64,000 bases of DNA from Candidatus Rokuibacteriota bacterium (GTDB lineage: Bacteria > Methylomirabilota > Methylomirabilia > Rokubacteriales > CSP1-6), in contig QHTE01000048.1 in assembly GCA_003220685.1 (NCBI GenBank), positions 95,029-159,028 of the forward strand. The letters are read 5' to 3'. A program made the translations under genes and the position numbers. This document shows, piece after piece, positions 10,180-64,000 of the stretch. The notes under the pieces were generated by a model. That model did no database searches. It had not been told where the DNA came from and worked only from the letters and a program-made list of their open reading frames with translations. The first letter of the stretch is position 1; each line of letters opens with the position of its first letter.

Positions 10180-10638
10180 TCACGCCTGCTTCCGTCCGGC
10201 CGCCATGTGCACCGCCTCCCGGATGCGCTGATACGTGCCGCAGCGGCAGATGTTGGTCATGGCGTCGTCGATGTCGTGATCGGTCGGTTTTGGCTTTCGC
10301 TTGAGGAGAGCCGACGCCGCCATGATCTGCCCGGACTGGCAGTAACCGCACTGCGGCACGTCGAGCGCCGCCCAAGCTTTCTGGACGGGGTGAGAGCCGG
10401 TGGCCGACAGGCCTTCGATGGTGACGATCCGATCCGTGGCCTTCACGCTCCCCACGGGAAGGACGCAGGTGCGCACGACCTGGTCGTTGATGTGCACCGA
10501 GCAGGCGCCGCACTGCGCGACGCCGCAGCCGTACTTGGTGCCGGTCAGGCCGATCTGCTCGCGGATGACCCAGAGGAGCGGTGTGTCGGCTTCAACCTGC
10601 ACGTCACGTACCCGCCCATTGATATTGAGCTTTGCCAT
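10180..10638 (-). CDS. (2Fe-2S)-binding small subunit of the Mo-hydroxylase (IorA-like)
   Basis: 152 aa. Cys clusters '[11 protein letters not shown]' and 'CGYCQSG...CRCGTY'. It ends 1 nt upstream of the large-subunit start. Confidence 0.9.
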
Positions 10639-10669
10639 CAGCGTCCTCCCGTGGCGCGATCCTCGCAGA

Positions 10670-11518
10670 TCACCGATGCTCGAGCGAAACCTGCTCGGCG
10701 TACGAGGCGCGGTAGCCCTCGTAGGAGCGGGCGTAGGCGGCGCGGGCCTGCTCGTCCATGTCGGCTTTCGGTGCCGGCTCGAGCTCGAAGTGGCCGTACG
10801 TGTCGACCCCGCGGACGAGCATCGCCGGAGTCTTGTGCTTCACGCCCAGATGCCCGACCGAGGTCGGGACGTAGCTGATCGCCAGACCGATGCGGCGGCC
10901 GTGCGAGCGATTGGGCTCTGAACGGTGCAGGCAGAGCGTGTGGTGCAGCGAGAACTCGCCCGCGCGCAGGGGAGCGTGGACCGCGGGCGCGTCGTCGACC
11001 TCGCCGACGATCGCCTGGCCGGCGCGGTTCACGCTGCCGGCCACGACGCCGGCGCGATGCGGCCGCTGGCCCCCGTGATGACTGCCGGGCAGGAACTCCA
11101 TGCAGCCGTTCTCCGCCGTCGCATCGGTCAGGGCGAGCCACGCGGTCACGTGCACGTACGGGCGTAGCCCGAAGTAGGTCGCGTCCTGGTGCCAGGCGGC
11201 GATCGCCGCGCTCTCGGGCTCCTTGATGAACCACGTCGAGGTGTAGACGAGGATGTCCGGGCCGATCAGGTCCTCGACGGCGTCCAGGATCGCCGGATGA
11301 CGCGTGAGCGCGTGCACCCACGACAGCAGGACGTGCGTACGCGACCGGTAGCGCGCGTCGGTCCGGTCGGAGGTGAGCGGTCCACCCACCGTCGCCTCGA
11401 ACGCCTCGAGCTTTCGAAGGCAGGCGGCGGCTTCCCCGCGCGTGAGCGCGGCGTTCGGCGAGAGGAATCCGTCGCGCGCGTAGGCGTCGACCTGGGCCGG
11501 CGACAGCGTTTTCGGCAT
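10670..11518 (-). CDS. phytanoyl-CoA dioxygenase (PhyH) family Fe(II)/2OG oxygenase
   Basis: 282 aa. 'WHQDATYF..', '..[11 protein letters not shown]..' and '..[13 protein letters not shown]' match the PhyH HxD...H pattern. Confidence 0.85.
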
Positions 11519-18938: not shown

Positions 18939-19859
18939 ATGTCGCAGTTCATCATCCGGCGCGTGCTGTACAGCGTCGTCACGCTCCTCATCCTGAGCGC
19001 GACGATCTTCTTGATCGTGCGCCTGACGGGCGACCCTGTCGCGCTCATGGCCGAGGCGAGCGCGCGCCCCGAGGACCTCGAGCGGATCCGGCACCAGTGG
19101 GGACTCGACCGCTCGTGGCCGGTGCAGTACGTGACCTTCATGCAGAACGCGTTCACGGGAGAGCTCGGCAAGTCCTTCAATTACCGGCTCCCCGTGAGCG
19201 AGCTTTACTTTCAGCGGCTGCCCAACTCGCTGACGCTCGGGTTGGCCGCCACGCTCATCTCGCTCCTGATCGGCATTCCGGCCGGTATCATCTCGGCGGT
19301 GAAGGTGAACAGCGGCTGGGACACCGTCGCGAAGGGCGTCGCGCTGCTCGGCCTCTCGATCCCCGGCTTCTGGCTCGGCCTCGTGCTGATCCTCGTGTTC
19401 TCGGTCTGGCTCCGGTGGCTGCCGACCTCCGGCTCGGGCGACTGGCGCCACGTCGTCATGCCGGCGCTGGCACTCGGCTGGTACTTCGCGGCGTCGATGC
19501 TGAGGCTCACCCGCTCGAGCATGCTGGAGGTGCTCGGCAGCGAGTACATCAAGCTCGCCCGGCTCAAGGGGCTCCCGGACTTCGTGGTCATCGCCATGCA
19601 CGCGTTCAAGAACGCGCTCATTCCGGTGTTCACCCTGGCCGGCGTCAACATGGTTGTGATGGTCAATGCCGCGGTCATCATCGAGGTCATCTTCGCGTGG
19701 CCCGGTATCGGCCGGCTGCTCTACGAAGGCATCTTCCAGCGCGACTTCCCGCTGGTCCAGGGCGTGGTGGTCATGGCCGGCTTCATGATCGTCGTGATCA
19801 ACCTGCTGGTGGACATCCTGTACGCCATCATCGATCCCAGAATCAGGCTCACGCGATGA
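18939..19859 (+). CDS. ABC peptide-type permease, DppB-like
   Basis: 306 aa. 'MSQFIIRRVLYSVVTLL...TGDPVALM' and the C-terminus 'VDILYAIIDPRIRLTR'. Confidence 0.9.
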   Translation: MSQFIIRRVLYSVVTLLILSATIFLIVRLTGDPVALMAEASARPEDLERIRHQWGLDRSWPVQYVTFMQNAFTGELGKSFNYRLPVSELYFQRLPNSLTLGLAATLISLLIGIPAGIISAVKVNSGWDTVAKGVALLGLSIPGFWLGLVLILVFSVWLRWLPTSGSGDWRHVVMPALALGWYFAASMLRLTRSSMLEVLGSEYIKLARLKGLPDFVVIAMHAFKNALIPVFTLAGVNMVVMVNAAVIIEVIFAWPGIGRLLYEGIFQRDFPLVQGVVVMAGFMIVVINLLVDILYAIIDPRIRLTR

Positions 19860-19876
19860 GCACGAGGTAGCCGACG

Positions 19877-20785
19877 ATGGCGACCATTCCGGCGAATACC
19901 AGGCTCGCCGCGGAACGGACCTGGACCGGCCGGCTCGCCGCACTCGTCAAGGCGGCGCGCGAAGCGCCCCTGGCCGTGGTCGTCATTCTCGGCGGGCTGA
20001 TTCTCGTGGCGGCCCTCGCCGATCTGATCGCGCCGTACGACCCGACCCTGCCGGTGAAGGGAGCCGAGATCTTCGCCCCGCCGTTCTGGATGGAGGGCGG
20101 GAGCCTGGCGACGCCGCTCGGCACCGATTTCCAGGGCCGCGACATCTTGAGTCGTCTGATCTACGGCGCGCGCGTGTCGCTGATCGTCGGGCTGATGGGC
20201 ACGCTCGTGGCCGGCGGCATCGGGACCGCGCTCGGCATCGTCTCCGGCTACCTGGGCGGCTGGGTGGACCAGATCATCATGCGCGTGACCGACGCCTGGC
20301 TCGCCCTGCCGGCGATCGTCTTCGCGATCTTCCTCGCGGCCATGATCGGCCCGAGCATGTGGAACATCATCGTCATCCTGGGCGCGGTGTACTGGACGCG
20401 CTATGCGCGTGTCATCCGCGGCGAGGTGCTGAGCCTGCGCGAGCGCGACTTCGTCAAGCTGGCCGAGATCGCCGGCGCCAGCAAGCTGCGCGTGATCAAG
20501 AAGCACATCCTGCCGAACGTCCTGAACACGGCGACGGTACTGGCGAGCCTCACCGTCGGCGTCGTCATCATCGCCGAGGCCTCGCTCAGCTTTCTCGGCG
20601 TCGGCGTACCGCCGCCGCAGCCGGCGTGGGGCCTCATGCTCTCGGAGGCGCGCCCGACCTTGATGGCGGGCCAGTGGTGGCTCACGGTGTTTCCGGGCGC
20701 GTGCATCCTCCTGATCGTCCTCGCGACACAGCTCTTCGGCGACTGGCTGCGGGTCAGGCTCGATCCCCAGACGAGAAACCTCTAG
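19877..20785 (+). CDS. ABC peptide-type permease, DppC-like
   Basis: 302 aa. 'PLGTDFQGRDILSRLIYGARVSL' motif and a BPD permease core. Confidence 0.9.
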   Translation: MATIPANTRLAAERTWTGRLAALVKAAREAPLAVVVILGGLILVAALADLIAPYDPTLPVKGAEIFAPPFWMEGGSLATPLGTDFQGRDILSRLIYGARVSLIVGLMGTLVAGGIGTALGIVSGYLGGWVDQIIMRVTDAWLALPAIVFAIFLAAMIGPSMWNIIVILGAVYWTRYARVIRGEVLSLRERDFVKLAEIAGASKLRVIKKHILPNVLNTATVLASLTVGVVIIAEASLSFLGVGVPPPQPAWGLMLSEARPTLMAGQWWLTVFPGACILLIVLATQLFGDWLRVRLDPQTRNL

Positions 20786-58081: not shown

Positions 58082-58549
58082 TCAGGCCGTCGCGCCGGCG
58101 CGCCGCGCTTCGCGCAGGCCCGCGAGGATCGCCTCGCGGTCGAGGCTCATCTCCATCAGCGCGACCTGCGCCTCGTACACGTCCGCCGGCACCTGGTCGC
58201 GTACTTCCGGCTCGAACACGTGAAACACGGGGAGCCCCAACGGGACTCCGGCCAACGGGCCCGCGTAGGAGGGATCGCCGGCGACGACGGTCTGGGCGAG
58301 CGTCTGCGTGCTCTCGGCATCGGGCGTGCCGAGAAGGACCACCACGCCATTGCCGTGCTCGTCAGCGACTCGCTTCACCGCCGCCTGATCCTCCAGGCCC
58401 ATGGCGCCCGCCGCGGTTCAGACGTAGCAGGCGGTCAGGGTCAGCACCACCTCGGCGCCCGCGCGACTGGCGCACTCCGCCACCGCGGGGCCCGGCACGC
58501 CGTCGCGCTCACCGAGCGCGATGACCTTCTTGCCTCGAAGTTCCATCAT
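58082..58549 (-). CDS. grdA: glycine/sarcosine/betaine reductase complex selenoprotein A (UGA-Sec at 58418-58420)
   Basis: ORFs 58418..58669 and 58082..58402 are in frame. The joined product '[80 protein letters not shown]' matches GrdA, including the CxxU motif. AAAGGAG RBS. 155 aa. Confidence 0.85.
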
Positions 58550-58712
58550 GTGGCTCCTTTCTAATGGGGGACCCGCGAGGGGTCCCCCATACCCCTCCAC
58601 GCTCGCCAGCGCCCCGGCGGAGCCGTGGCGCTGGGCCTTTCTAGATGGGGGACCTAGACGGGTCCCCATACCCCTCCACGCTCGCCAGCGCCCCGGCGGA
58701 GCCGTGGCGCTG
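58550..58712 (-). repeat. tandem direct repeat (84 + 79 nt) of a two-hairpin element between grdC and grdA
   Basis: Units are 58550-58633 and 58634-58712, with a ~49-nt core that looks identical on reading. Each unit has the hairpin CAGCGCC-N13-GGCGCTG plus a second hairpin: ATGGGGGACCC-CTCGC-GGGTCCCCCAT (perfect 11 bp) in the grdA-proximal unit, bulged in the other. Each unit ends in TAGAAAGG. Confidence 0.8.
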
Positions 58713-58730
58713 CTCGACCACCGGCGGAGG

Positions 58731-60203
58731 TCACGTGCTGCCGGCGTTGCGCTCCAGGACGAGGGAGAGCCCGTCCGGCAGCTGCGTCATGCGTCCCAGG
58801 AACAGACTACCCTTGCCCGCGAACATCGTGCGCGTGAGGCGGCCCTCGGTGAGCGCGCGTCGCGCGTGACCGAGATACGGGATCGCCGAGGCGATGTGGC
58901 CCTGGGTCGGCGAGAAGCCCGGCATGCCCCGCGCGCGGACGAAGTCGTCGATGCTCTCGCGCGCGATCAGCTTCTCGACCACGGCCAGGCTCGCCAGGGT
59001 GCGGTAGTTGTTGAGCGGGACGTTGCCGCTCCCCGCGGGCTCGGTCGCCTCGGGGTTGTGTAGCTCGAGCGAGAACCGGTCCACGTCGAGCAACGTCAGT
59101 CCCACGCGGCCGAGCGGCTCGCTGTAGAGCGCCTTCATGACCGCGAGCGGCGCCGAGCCCGAGGCGACCTCGTGGCGGCCGATCGCGTCGAGCCGCAAGG
59201 TGGGCGAGACGCCGTCGTCGCGCGAGACGTGCGCGGCGAAGCCGGCGAGCACGTCCTCGACGATTGGCATCGCGTGCTTGACGTGCCCCTGGAATTTCAT
59301 CCCGAGCTTCGCCAGCGAGCCACCCGCCAGGACGACCACGTCGTCGTGCAGGCCGCTGCGGACCAGGGCCCCGGCCAGCATCAACGCGTGCATCGGCCCG
59401 CTGCAGAACGCCTTGACATCGCTGCCGGTCGCGCGGCCGCAGCCTGCCCATTCGGCCACCGCCTTGGCGACGTTGCCGCCGCCGCGCTGGTAGCGATCGC
59501 CCACCGCCTCCTCGCCGCAATTGATGACGTAGCGGACGTCGGCGGACGCGATCGCCCCGGGTCGCGCGAGCAGGTGACGCAGCGCCAGCGCCGCCGTTGC
59601 CTTGCACGCGAGATTCTCCAGCAACACCTGGCCGGTGAGCGTGTCGTCCTCGTCGTGCCCGGGCAGCATGGCGCCGAGGAGCCGGCCGTCCGCGCCTACG
59701 ATTCGCAGCGCGCGGTGCCGCTCGACGCGCTCCTCGAGCACGGCCGCGGTGACGCCGGGCGGTACGGTCGGGCTGCCGGCGGCGCGACCGATGACCGGGT
59801 GCGCGTCGAGCGCGCTTCGCGCGCGGTCGGCCAGCTCGCGGTCGAGCCCGAGCAGCTGGAAGCCGTCGCAGGCGGCCAACAAGCCGAAAAACTCGTCCTC
59901 GGGCATGATCTCGCCGTCGGGACCGAAGCGCGCCGCCCTCTCGATCGGATGACGATGCCAGGGAGTCGGCCGCGCCGCGAGCTCGTCCACCCCCATGTTG
60001 CCGATGAACACCTGGTTCGGCGCGTAGGCCTGCGCGACGTCCCAGGCGCGCAGATGCGGTCGCAGGAAGTCGATCGGGTCGTGCACCTCGCGCAGGACCC
60101 GCAACGGCTTGGAGCCGAGCCGGACGAGGCTCGGCACGTGCGCGAGCACGAGCGAGACCGCGCGAATGACGGGCATCCCGTCCGACGTCACGCGAGGCAT
60201 CAT
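58731..60203 (-). CDS. grdC: glycine/sarcosine/betaine reductase complex component C, beta subunit-like (thiolase-like fold)
   Basis: About 490 aa. '[24 protein letters not shown]' resembles the GrdC N-terminus as I remember it. '[15 protein letters not shown]' is a thiolase-like Cys region. ATGATG at 60198-60203 overlaps the araC stop; ATG 60176 is an alternative start. Confidence 0.8.
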
Positions 60204-61064: not shown

Positions 61065-61685
61065 TTGGTAGGCACTGGAGACAAGAGTACGACTACGGAG
61101 CAACTCGTCGCGTTCCTTCTCTTCGCGGTGGTGGCCGCGGTCACGCCCGGCCCCAGCAACATCATGGTGACGGCCGCCGGGGCGAACGCCGGCCTCCTCA
61201 AAGGGCTTCCGTGCCTCTTGGGTGTCGCGACCGGCATGGGGCTCATGATGTTTCTGGTGCCGCTGGGGCTGGGGAGCGTCGTCCTCGGCCATCCCCTCGT
61301 GCTGAAGACGCTCAACTGGGGCGGCGCGGCGTTCCTGCTCTGGCTCGCGTGGAGGATCGCGACCTCGATCGGTCTCGAAACGACTCGAGAGCCCCAGCCC
61401 GTCGGCTATTTCAAGGCTGCGGCTTTTCAGTGGGTGAACCCGAAAGCGTGGCTCGTGAGCGCGAGCGCGGCGGGAACGTTTCTCAGCGCGGGGGCGGGGA
61501 GCCCGGTCGTGCAGTCCGTCTATCTCGGCGGGCTGTTCTTCCTCGCGGCGCTGCCGAGCTGCTTCGTGTGGCTGGCGTTCGGCGCCACGGTCCAGCGCAT
61601 GCTCCGGAGCCCGCGCCGGCTCCGGGCGTTCAACGTCGCGATGGGGGTGCTCCTCGCCGTCTCGATCGTCCTCATCGCCGCGTAG
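61065..61685 (+). CDS. LysE/RhtB family amino-acid exporter
   Basis: 206 aa from TTG. 'LLFAVVAAVTPGPSNI' is the LysE N-terminal motif, with about 6 TM segments. Divergent from araC. Confidence 0.8.
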   Translation: MVGTGDKSTTTEQLVAFLLFAVVAAVTPGPSNIMVTAAGANAGLLKGLPCLLGVATGMGLMMFLVPLGLGSVVLGHPLVLKTLNWGGAAFLLWLAWRIATSIGLETTREPQPVGYFKAAAFQWVNPKAWLVSASAAGTFLSAGAGSPVVQSVYLGGLFFLAALPSCFVWLAFGATVQRMLRSPRRLRAFNVAMGVLLAVSIVLIAA

Positions 61686-62379
61686 ACTCGCGGCCCCCCT
61701 CGCGAGTCTCCACCGGGCTCTGACCGGCGCTCGTCGCCGTCTCGGGCGCCAGCGGAATGACACCGCCCGGCTCGCCGGCCAGGATCCAGTCGATGAGCAG
61801 GCGATAGCGGTCCGTCGGCACGGCGCCAACCAGCGAGAGCTTCTCGTTGAGGACGACCGTCGGCAGGCCGGACACGCCGAACCACGCGGCACCCTCGGCG
61901 CAGTCCCGCAGCACGGCCTCGTACGCCTCGCCGGCGTAGTCGGCCTCGAAGCGCGCCGGATCGAGCGCGGTCTCGCGGAGAAGGGTGCGCAGCACCTCGG
62001 GGCGCGAGATGTCGAGGTTGTCGCGAAAATGCGCGGTGAAGAGGCGCTCGTGAAACCGTTCGAACGCGGCTTCGCCCTGGAGCTCGGCGCACTTGGCGGC
62101 TGTCAGCGCCGGGACGCTCGAGGACGGCAGCGGGGTGTCGATCGCCGGCGGGACGAAGAACGCGCGCGGCTCCTCGGCGCCGACGCGCTGCCGGCCCTCG
62201 CGCGTCTTCTGCGTGACGCGCCGGTCAGGCTGCTCGCCGGGAATCAGCGGGAAGGTCCGCCAGTGGAGCCTGACGCGCTCGCCGTAGGCCCGCTGGATCT
62301 CGCGAAGCCGCACCGCGGCGTTGTAGCACCAGGGGCACAGGTAGTCGGAGAAGACGTCGAGCCGGACGGGTGCCGTCAT
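61672..62379 (-). CDS. DsbA/FrnE-like thioredoxin-fold oxidoreductase (CPWC active site)
   Basis: 235 aa. 'LDVFSDYLCPWCYNA' N-terminal motif. The ATG overlaps the grdB stop (ATGA at 62376-62379). Confidence 0.8.
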   Translation of the reverse strand: MTAPVRLDVFSDYLCPWCYNAAVRLREIQRAYGERVRLHWRTFPLIPGEQPDRRVTQKTREGRQRVGAEEPRAFFVPPAIDTPLPSSSVPALTAAKCAELQGEAAFERFHERLFTAHFRDNLDISRPEVLRTLLRETALDPARFEADYAGEAYEAVLRDCAEGAAWFGVSGLPTVVLNEKLSLVGAVPTDRYRLLIDWILAGEPGGVIPLAPETATSAGQSPVETREGGRESTRR

Positions 62380-63695
62380 TCGCGCCCGAACACCGTGGGT
62401 TTCGCGACCTCGGTCCGGAGCGCTTGCAGCGCCTGCTCGACGATGCGCCGCCGCAGCGCCTTCTCGTCCTCGGGCGAGAGGTCCGCGCTGCCGAGCGGAT
62501 GGATGATGCCCGCGGCGGACACGATGCGATTGGCGCCGACCATTACCGCGACCGGCGTCATGGTCGAGACCTGCACCGTCGGCAGCCCCGCCCGCTCGAG
62601 CTCTCGCGTGATCGCTGCGCCGCAGCGAGTGCTGGTGCCTCAGGTGGAGGTGAGGATGACGGCGTCGACGCCGGCCGCGCGCAGCTTTTCCGCGATCTCG
62701 CGGCCCATGCGCGCGCTCTGGGCGAGCGTGGTCGCGACGCCGACCGTTGAGTAGATGGTTTCATGCAGCTTGCCGATGGCGCCGCTCTGCTCCAGCTCGC
62801 GGGCGACGTCGACCGGGACCAGACGGTGCGGATCCTGCTTCACCCAGGTCGTGTCGTAGCCGCGATGAGGATTGTCGTACTGGGCCGCGTCGAGGCTCGA
62901 CTTGCCCTCGATGCTGTAGGCGCCGTAGCGCGTCGCGTTCAGCGCCTCGATGCCGTCGGGGTTGCCGCGCGGGACCAGGCCGCCGTCGGTGACGAGCGCG
63001 ATCGTCGCGCCGGCGAGCGTCTTGACGAGCCGCGGCGCGGCGACGGGCGGAAACGCCGGTCTCGGGACCTCGGTCGTGAAGGCGCGGCCGGCCAGCTTGT
63101 CGAGCAGCATCGCGACGGCGCGGTCGGCGGCGTTGGCGCCGGCGACGATATTGCGCGTCACACCGCGGGCGAAATATCCGTGAGCTGCCGGGGCGCCGAT
63201 CGCCTCGCCGCGGGCGAGCTTCAGCCCGAGCGCGACGAGCCGCTGCACTTCCGGGAGCATGCGCGTGGCCTCCGCGCCGGTCTGGACGACGTAGACCTGA
63301 CGGCGGTAGAGCTCGACGCCGGGATTCTCGGCGTGCATGCCGGTGACGGTCGGAATCTTCAGCTCGGCCTGCGCGGCGGCGCAGAGCGCGCCGCACGCGA
63401 CGCCGTAGCGGCCCGCCAGGAACGCGGGCCCCGCGACCAGCAAATCGGGGCGCGCCGCGGCGACCAGCGCGACCAGCTCGGTGGTCGCGCGCTCGGCCTG
63501 CTCGGCGGCGTAGTTGTCGCCACAGATCACCGTCGCGACGACCGTGCCCGCGTCGCCGAGCGCCTGCTGAACGGCCCGCGCGGCGCCGATGGCGCCGTCG
63601 ACCACCTGCGGCCCGACGCCGGCTTTGTCCTCGCCGCCGAGCTGGCCGAAGAACTGGTTGAGGTAGCAGACAACCCGCAAGGTCTCAGCTGCCAT
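62376..63695 (-). CDS. grdB: glycine/sarcosine/betaine reductase selenoprotein B-type subunit (UGA-Sec at 62640-62642)
   Basis: ORFs 62640..63698 and 62376..62576 are in frame with no intervening stop. 'LRVVCYLNQFFGQLGGEDKAG' at the N-terminus and '..AVILTST-U-GTSTRCGA..' match GrdB. About 439 aa. ATG 63695 overlaps the upstream stop (TGATG); GTG 63698 is an alternative. Confidence 0.85.
62612..62628 (-). promoter_or_regulatory. candidate SECIS-like stem-loop downstream of the grdB UGA
   Basis: Sense strand TCGCTGC-GGC-GCAGCGA (7-bp stem) begins 12 nt 3' of the UGA at 62640-62642. Not modelled energetically. Confidence 0.3.
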
Positions 63696-64000
63696 CACCG
63701 CACCTCCGCCATCACTCTGGTCGCCCCGACCTGCTCGATCGCGCCGCAGAGCCCGCCGTAGGTGGCGCGCGTCTCGCCCAGGAGCTTCGACGCGAGATCG
63801 TCGGCGCCGATCACGCGGTCCATCGCCGGCAAGGTGATCGGCTCCTGGCTGCTCCCGACGTTCACCAGCGCGTCGACTCCCGGAAAATCGAAGAGCAGCA
63901 TGCCCTCCGCGCTACCGTCGGTCGACATGTCCTCGACGACGGCCGTCGTCTTGACGCCGAGGGCTTCGCACTGCGCGGCCGCCTGCGCCATGTCGACGTG
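63695..64000 (-). CDS. grdE: glycine/sarcosine/betaine reductase component B proprotein (GrdE/GrdG/GrdI-type), C-terminal part; continues beyond the window
   Basis: The frame is open to the window end. '..QCEALGVKTTAVVEDMSTDG...VNVGSSQEPITLPAMDRVIG' resembles the GrdE-family C-terminal region as I remember it ('..CKALEEAGIKTV...GNANEVITLPPMDKVIG'). Its stop overlaps the grdB start. Confidence 0.65.
   Translation of the reverse strand, partial: HVDMAQAAAQCEALGVKTTAVVEDMSTDGSAEGMLLFDFPGVDALVNVGSSQEPITLPAMDRVIGADDLASKLLGETRATYGGLCGAIEQVGATRVMAEVR

Follow-up and report, generated by a model that had tools for sequence, protein, structure and literature searches.

One gene, grdA, occupies a region that routine gene calling divides into two, and it very probably encodes selenoprotein A of the glycine/sarcosine/betaine reductase family, with the UGA at 58420-58418 decoded as selenocysteine (Sec) in a C-Y-V-U centre. 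The gene is located on the minus strand of a 64,000-nucleotide stretch of DNA from Candidatus Rokuibacteriota (contig QHTE01000048.1), which we call the window. The single-gene reading with Sec is based on the presence of one TGA in an otherwise continuous frame, on one profile match that extends over both halves, and on the alignment of this TGA with that of the grdA gene of Peptoclostridium acidaminophilum. The assignment of the UGA to Sec is argued for by the occurrence of TGA in 76 of 76 loci and of TGC in two homologues, by the use of TGA as a normal stop in nearby genes, by the presence in the same cluster of a second gene with a Sec-type TGA together with grdC and grdE, and by a hairpin that fits the bacterial SECIS model. 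The interpretation of the first-pass annotation, which had proposed a single selenoprotein A gene split at a UGA, is therefore supported.

The elements of the gene, all of them on the minus strand, are the following, with coordinates measured from the first nucleotide of the window.

58082-58549 (-): grdA (selenoprotein A) coding sequence, 155 codons including Sec; the alternative start is the second ATG, at 58546.
58418-58420 (-): in-frame TGA, putative Sec, residue 44; column shared with P. acidaminophilum grdA, occupied by TGA in 76 of 76 loci and by TGC in two metagenome homologues.
58418-58429 (-): C-Y-V-U redox motif (CxxU), TGC TAC GTC TGA, read from the sequence; CxxU is given as the GrdA motif in PMC13188914.
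58554-58560 (-): Shine-Dalgarno-like AAAGGAG, 4 nt before the ATG at 58549 and 7 nt before the ATG at 58546.
58383-58398 (-): candidate SECIS hairpin of grdA, GCCUG-GAGGAU-CAGGC; stem of 5 bp, loop of 6 nt with G first, 24 nt past the UGA, -8.6 kcal/mol.

The frame runs from the ATGATG at 58549-58544 to a terminal TGA at 58084-58082, and its sole interruption is the TGA at 58420-58418. The sequence around the internal TGA is ACC GCC TGC TAC GTC TGA ACC GCG GCG GGC GCC ATG GGC CTG GAG, in which the Cys codon of the redox motif corresponds to 58429-58427 and the ATG that follows the TGA to 58402-58400. The list of open reading frames presents this region as an 83-aa ORF (58418-58669) ending in TLTACYV and a 106-aa ORF (58082-58402) beginning with MGLEDQ; both the list and the sequence agree with the first-pass statement that the two share a frame and are parted only by TGA ACC GCG GCG GGC GCC. 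The AAAGGAG that had been proposed as a ribosome-binding site ahead of the ATGATG is also present, at 58560-58554, with CCAC between it and the two ATG codons. Public gene calls for the N-terminal fragment use either ATG, resulting in 42 or 43 aa, and most of them take the second one; the true start of grdA may be this second ATG, at 58546. The opening 40 or so codons of the 83-aa ORF are spurious and lie outside grdA, since they fall inside a tandem-repeat insertion that is absent from relatives and the family model begins at residue 4 of MMELRGKK. A scan for promoters and terminators around grdA found none.

When the two ORFs are joined, the product (154-155 aa) matches the Pfam family PF04723 (GRDA) with 191.7 bits, compared to a cut-off of 22, with its residues 4-149 aligned on positions 1-147 of the 147 of the profile, and the NCBIfam equivalog NF040748 with 194.3 bits, compared to a cut-off of 130. 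It is a single GrdA profile match (E = 1e-57) that runs across the TGA and covers both halves, so the product belongs to the GrdA family as a full-length member above cut-off, and the claim that the two ORFs are a split GrdA holds. The window gene presents the CxxU motif with its in-frame TGA at the Sec column of the family. A sequence search of the PDB returned no solved structure related to GrdA.

The grdA gene of P. acidaminophilum (formerly placed in Eubacterium; megaplasmid NZ_CP007453.1), which was found via a search of the plasmid collection, is annotated in RefSeq as a single CDS for the "glycine/sarcosine/betaine reductase complex selenoprotein A" (WP_084481378.1). Its product has 158 aa, compared to 155 aa in the window, and the two proteins are 54% identical over 151 aa, with one in-frame TGA at residue 44 in each. 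The comparison with the GrdA of a characterized organism that the first-pass annotation had recommended therefore places both TGA codons in the same column. The P. acidaminophilum protein reads TECFV-U-TAAGAMDLE where the window protein has CYV-U and GLE, and C-x-V-U-TAAGAM is common to both; the CxxU motif and TAAGAM flank that the first-pass annotation had ascribed to clostridial GrdA are thus found in the window as C-Y-V-U-TAAGAM, the same as in the annotated protein apart from its CFV. Both genes adjoin genes of the selenoprotein B type, although the window grdA comes after grdC, whereas that of P. acidaminophilum, at the one locus examined, comes after grdG-grdF, a transporter gene and a peptidase gene. 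Unlike clostridial GrdA, the window gene belongs to an uncultured Rokubacterium with 70% GC.

To describe the conservation of the TGA column, grdA was scanned for in one genome per species, which gave more than 555 loci, and the best 80 were retained. The codon count combines these best 80 loci with those fetched earlier and with the window, and considers only the loci with a locatable TAAGA[ML][DG]LE. In all 76 of the readable grdA loci, the codon before this motif is TGA and the motif is C-x-V-TGA. These loci represent Candidatus Rokuibacteriota, Chloroflexota, Deltaproteobacteria, Acidobacteria, Actinobacteria, Entotheonella, and cultured Clostridia. According to GrdA, the nearest named genomes are Candidatus Rokuibacteriota MAGs, with 93-96% identity, and soil-metagenome contigs and the MAG GCA_009771575.1 share at least 99.7% identity with the window. 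A second, divergent grdA type is present in other Rokubacteria MAGs (L059 and L090), with 56-59% identity to the window GrdA and the sequence TAAGAL[GD]LE, which indicates the existence of at least two Grd-type systems in Rokubacteria.

Among the 120 best database homologues, 72 start just past the Sec region, as M[G/D]LE, which indicates that gene finders cut them at the same place. The full-length homologues with a readable motif among the same best 120 are 39, and at the Sec column they show W (34), G (2), or C (3). The W and G residues are best explained as TGA translated under genetic code 4 or 25, an artefact of the chosen table. At the DNA level, a Cys codon (TGC, in CFV-C-TAAGAM) was verified in two metagenome GrdA homologues (positions 268-732 of L094 and 387-857 of L095), so that this column holds a Sec/Cys pair, the classical signature of a selenocysteine site. 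A paper from 2005 stated that no Cys homologues of GrdA were known (PMC1088965), which lends the Cys forms some minor interest.

Three other readings of the internal TGA were considered. According to the first of them, translation would stop at the UGA to release a polypeptide of 42 aa and re-initiate at the AUG at 58402 to produce another of 106 aa, with no Sec inserted. This lineage does have an ATG 15 nt past the TGA, but it is not preceded by a Shine-Dalgarno sequence, and the Met that it encodes at the head of the 106-aa ORF is replaced by Leu (CTT/CTG) in many homologues, so that no separate start is conserved for the C-terminal half. Re-initiation would also cut apart the catalytic CxxU/CxxC centre, whose Cys forms are single continuous proteins. 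We regard two separate polypeptides as highly improbable. The second reading takes the TGA as a real stop, with grdA being a pseudogene or the stop an assembly or sequencing error. It would be in line with the public gene calls, all of which give two fragments, and with the Sec machinery not being found in the window; yet independent assemblies with 99.7-99.9% identity contain this TGA as well, the TGA is conserved in 76 of 76 loci across phyla together with the protein sequence of both halves, and the annotated selenoprotein A of P. acidaminophilum shares the codon. This conservation effectively refutes a real stop or an error, to which we give almost no credence. That the host reads TGA as Trp or Gly (genetic code 4 or 25) is barely conceivable, since the 36 homologue records with W or G at the Sec column are set against the use of TGA as the normal stop of 9 of 14 neighbouring genes, including grdA, grdB, grdC, and grdE, which means that the code is not reassigned, and against a GC3-guided scan in which no other credible read-through TGA appeared, ordinary gene junctions aside.

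Decoding of the UGA as Sec would be expected to depend on a SECIS element. The bacterial SECIS model considers an apical loop of 3-9 nt, a stem of 4-16 bp, a G in the first two loop positions, a distance of 16-37 nt from the UGA to the loop, and an energy not above -7.5 kcal/mol (PMC13188914). The hairpin at 58383-58398 agrees with all four bSECISearch criteria given in PMC13188914, although its loop, GAGGAU, departs from the commonest G[G/U] pattern of the consensus bacterial SECIS, and its register is not the one seen in most other grdA lineages, where the loop is centred 2-3 nt further upstream. The first-pass annotation had suggested looking for a SECIS here; the hairpin found fits the model, but it is not statistically distinctive, as a simple implementation of the criteria also accepts 21% of positions taken at random from the 70% GC window, and 21% of all its UGA triplets. 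Likewise, the minimum free energy fold of the 74 nt that follow the grdA UGA is not more stable than those of shuffled sequences (z = +0.31), and the same is true for the fold after the UGA of the selenoprotein B gene described below. Fold stability alone says nothing in DNA with 70% GC.

The comparison between species provides a modest positive signal for a SECIS. A hairpin with its loop 22-26 nt past the UGA is present in 46 of 67 unique grdA sequences, compared to 3-26 of 67 at shifted control positions. The stems vary by grdA lineage, with GGAUC/GAUCC, UUGACC/GGUCAA, and GCCUG/CAGGC among their forms, and in L013 and L014, which are close relatives, the hairpin at 58383-58398 is weaker or missing. 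Covariation analysis of three hairpin registers in 62 distinct grdA sequences gave 61-70% pairing for each register, none of them with significant covariation. It is plausible but unproven that the hairpin at 58383-58398 is a SECIS, in which case it would be the element bound by SelB. A search of the whole window against Rfam at the gathering threshold gave no matches, and around grdA permissive E-values gave only chance-level ones; thus, no curated RNA family covers either the candidate SECIS or the repeat upstream of grdA.

No tRNA genes, including tRNA-Sec, were found in the 64-kb window, and tblastn searches with E. coli SelA, SelB, and SelD gave no match for selA, selB, or selD, either in the window or at the loci of related Rokubacteria. 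In a few other phyla, these searches did locate the genes next to grdA, which shows that the method works. Rokubacteriales are placed by GTDB within Methylomirabilota. A Methylomirabilota MAG with 63 predicted selenoprotein genes has been described (PMC13188914). This MAG, the second in-frame TGA of the cluster, and the SECIS-model hairpin that accompanies it are indirect support for a capacity to decode Sec. The GC3-guided scan, which examined the window for further read-through TGAs, recovered grdA and missed the selenoprotein B site at the thresholds used. Its four other candidates turned out to be ordinary adjacent genes in the same frame.

The grdA gene is part of a minus-strand cluster with the order grdE-like gene, selenoprotein B gene, DsbA-like gene, LysE gene (on the opposite strand), AraC-type regulator gene, grdC, a structured spacer of 170 nt, and grdA. 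Besides grdA, its relevant features are listed below.

58561-58730 (-): grdC-grdA spacer, structured (z = -3.4), with a 79-nt tandem duplication (copies at 58585-58633 and 58664-58712); no Rfam match.
58731-60200 (-): grdC (component C, beta subunit), directly upstream of grdA; NF040746 584.7 bits, cut-off 450; start taken from a 489-aa public gene call.
61672-62379 (-): DsbA-like thioredoxin-fold gene with a CPWC motif; Pfam DSBA 86 bits; its start overlaps the stop of the selenoprotein B gene.
62376-63698 (-): selenoprotein B homologue (GrdB/GrdF/GrdH family), 440 codons; Pfam GRDB 453 bits; TIGR01918 516 bits, full length.
62612-62628 (-): candidate SECIS hairpin of the selenoprotein B gene, UCGCUGC-GGC-GCAGCGA, 18 nt past the UGA, -10.7 kcal/mol; fits the SECIS model.
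63695-64000 (-): 3' end of a grdE/grdG-like proprotein gene (component B alpha/gamma); Pfam Gly_reductase; runs off the window.

The grdE/grdG-like gene is complete, with 420 aa, in the near-identical contig L001. The DsbA-like gene is located at a position in which one might expect a thioredoxin, and its conservation does not extend to the other clusters from outside the Firmicutes.

The selenoprotein B gene, located 4 kb upstream of grdA, is likewise interrupted in frame by a TGA, at 62642-62640, in the context ILTST-U-GTSTRCG. Its motif, U-G-T-S-T-R-C, corresponds to UxxSxxC and not to the canonical UxxCxxC. In the 53 loci examined, the motif is UxxCxxC in 29, UxxSxxC in 17 (the window included), and UxxGxxC in 7, that is, S or G in 24 of 53. 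The product reaches 516 bits with the broad TIGR01918 model and is below the cut-off of every substrate-specific one: 492 of the required 800 bits for GrdF, 472 of 602 for GrdB, and 456 of 775 for GrdH. Because the B subunit scores below the glycine-, sarcosine-, and betaine-specific cut-offs, we leave the substrate unassigned.

In Clostridium cadaveris (L067), the clostridial operon has the order trxB-trxA-grdE-grdA-grdB-grdC-grdD, and this Firmicutes order is found in 19 of the 19 loci that bear grdD. The window shares with this operon homologues of grdE, grdA, a Sec-bearing B gene, and grdC, all of them well above noise. It differs from the operon in its order (grdE-grdB ... grdC-grdA), in having no grdD, trxA, or trxB within reach, in the DsbA-like gene that comes after B, and in its B subunit, which has UxxSxxC instead of UxxCxxC and fits no glycine-, sarcosine-, or betaine-specific model. 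With the GrdD, TrxA, and TrxB of C. cadaveris as queries, no grdD (component C alpha), trxA, or trxB turned up in the window, nor at a distance of up to 10 kb from grdA in about 40 loci (41 for grdD) from outside the Firmicutes. In these loci, grdC is immediately upstream of grdA, and only grdE, grdB, grdC, and grdA are conserved. The canonical complex is thus incomplete in this neighbourhood, and grdD may be elsewhere in the genome; in P. acidaminophilum, too, grdA is separate from grdC and grdD at the examined locus. The open literature that was searched contained nothing specific on the absence of grdD.

The spacer between grdC and grdA varies in the number of copies of its repeat, with two copies in the window, L001, L005, and L006, one in L002-L004, and none in L012-L014. 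Among the fetched loci, the 79-nt repeat is confined to this position between grdC and grdA. In the window, the ribosome-binding site of grdA sits at the end of the second copy.

With respect to the genes that surround other grd clusters, creatininase genes flank the cluster of a Rokubacterial relative (L007, a complete contig of 5.6 Mb) at 10516-11349 and 19581-20324, and an M24 peptidase gene, possibly a creatinase, is present in the sarcosine reductase locus of P. acidaminophilum (L093, 6480-7718). These are hints that some grd clusters are linked to the breakdown of creatinine, creatine, and sarcosine.

By analogy with the clostridial enzyme, whose biochemistry underlies the following scheme (Andreesen 2004, as summarized in PMC13188914), the Grd proteins of this lineage would be expected to work as follows. 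The substrate-specific protein B, encoded by the grdE-like and selenoprotein B genes (62376-64000), would bind the amino-acid substrate, free the amine, and load GrdA with a carboxymethyl group at its selenol. Attack by the neighbouring Cys of CxxU would then leave GrdA as a mixed selenide-sulfide, and the two-carbon unit would pass to protein C (grdC), to be released as acetyl phosphate. Finally, the oxidized GrdA would be re-reduced by a thioredoxin-type dithiol, for which the DsbA-like protein is a candidate reductant in this lineage.

It is also conceivable, although we consider it rather unlikely, that the window and the approximately 40 non-Firmicutes loci (Chloroflexota, Deltaproteobacteria, Acidobacteria, Actinobacteria, and Entotheonella) represent a distinct branch of Grd-type selenoenzymes, characterized by having only grdE + grdB and grdC-grdA and a B subunit that often has UxxS/GxxC and fits no substrate model. 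If this were true, the branch might use another substrate, and its two-carbon release or its re-reduction might bypass the clostridial steps that involve GrdD and thioredoxin.

The open literature searched makes no mention of glycine, sarcosine, or betaine reductases in Rokubacteria, and it contained nothing specific on selenocysteine in them. The grdA gene described here is a new member of a long-known selenoprotein family, which curated models would name automatically, and it is a textbook case of a gene that gene finders routinely split. Our results correct a routine annotation error, in which all public copies of the gene are divided into fragments of 42 and 106 aa, and they document genes for a putative Sec-dependent Grd-type reductase in soil Rokubacteria, an uncultured phylum. 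The biochemical principle is unchanged by this finding; the neighbourhood of the gene, which lacks grdD and trx genes and includes a selenoprotein B with a variant motif and a DsbA-like partner, may be of modest interest for the study of Stickland-type reductases outside the Firmicutes.
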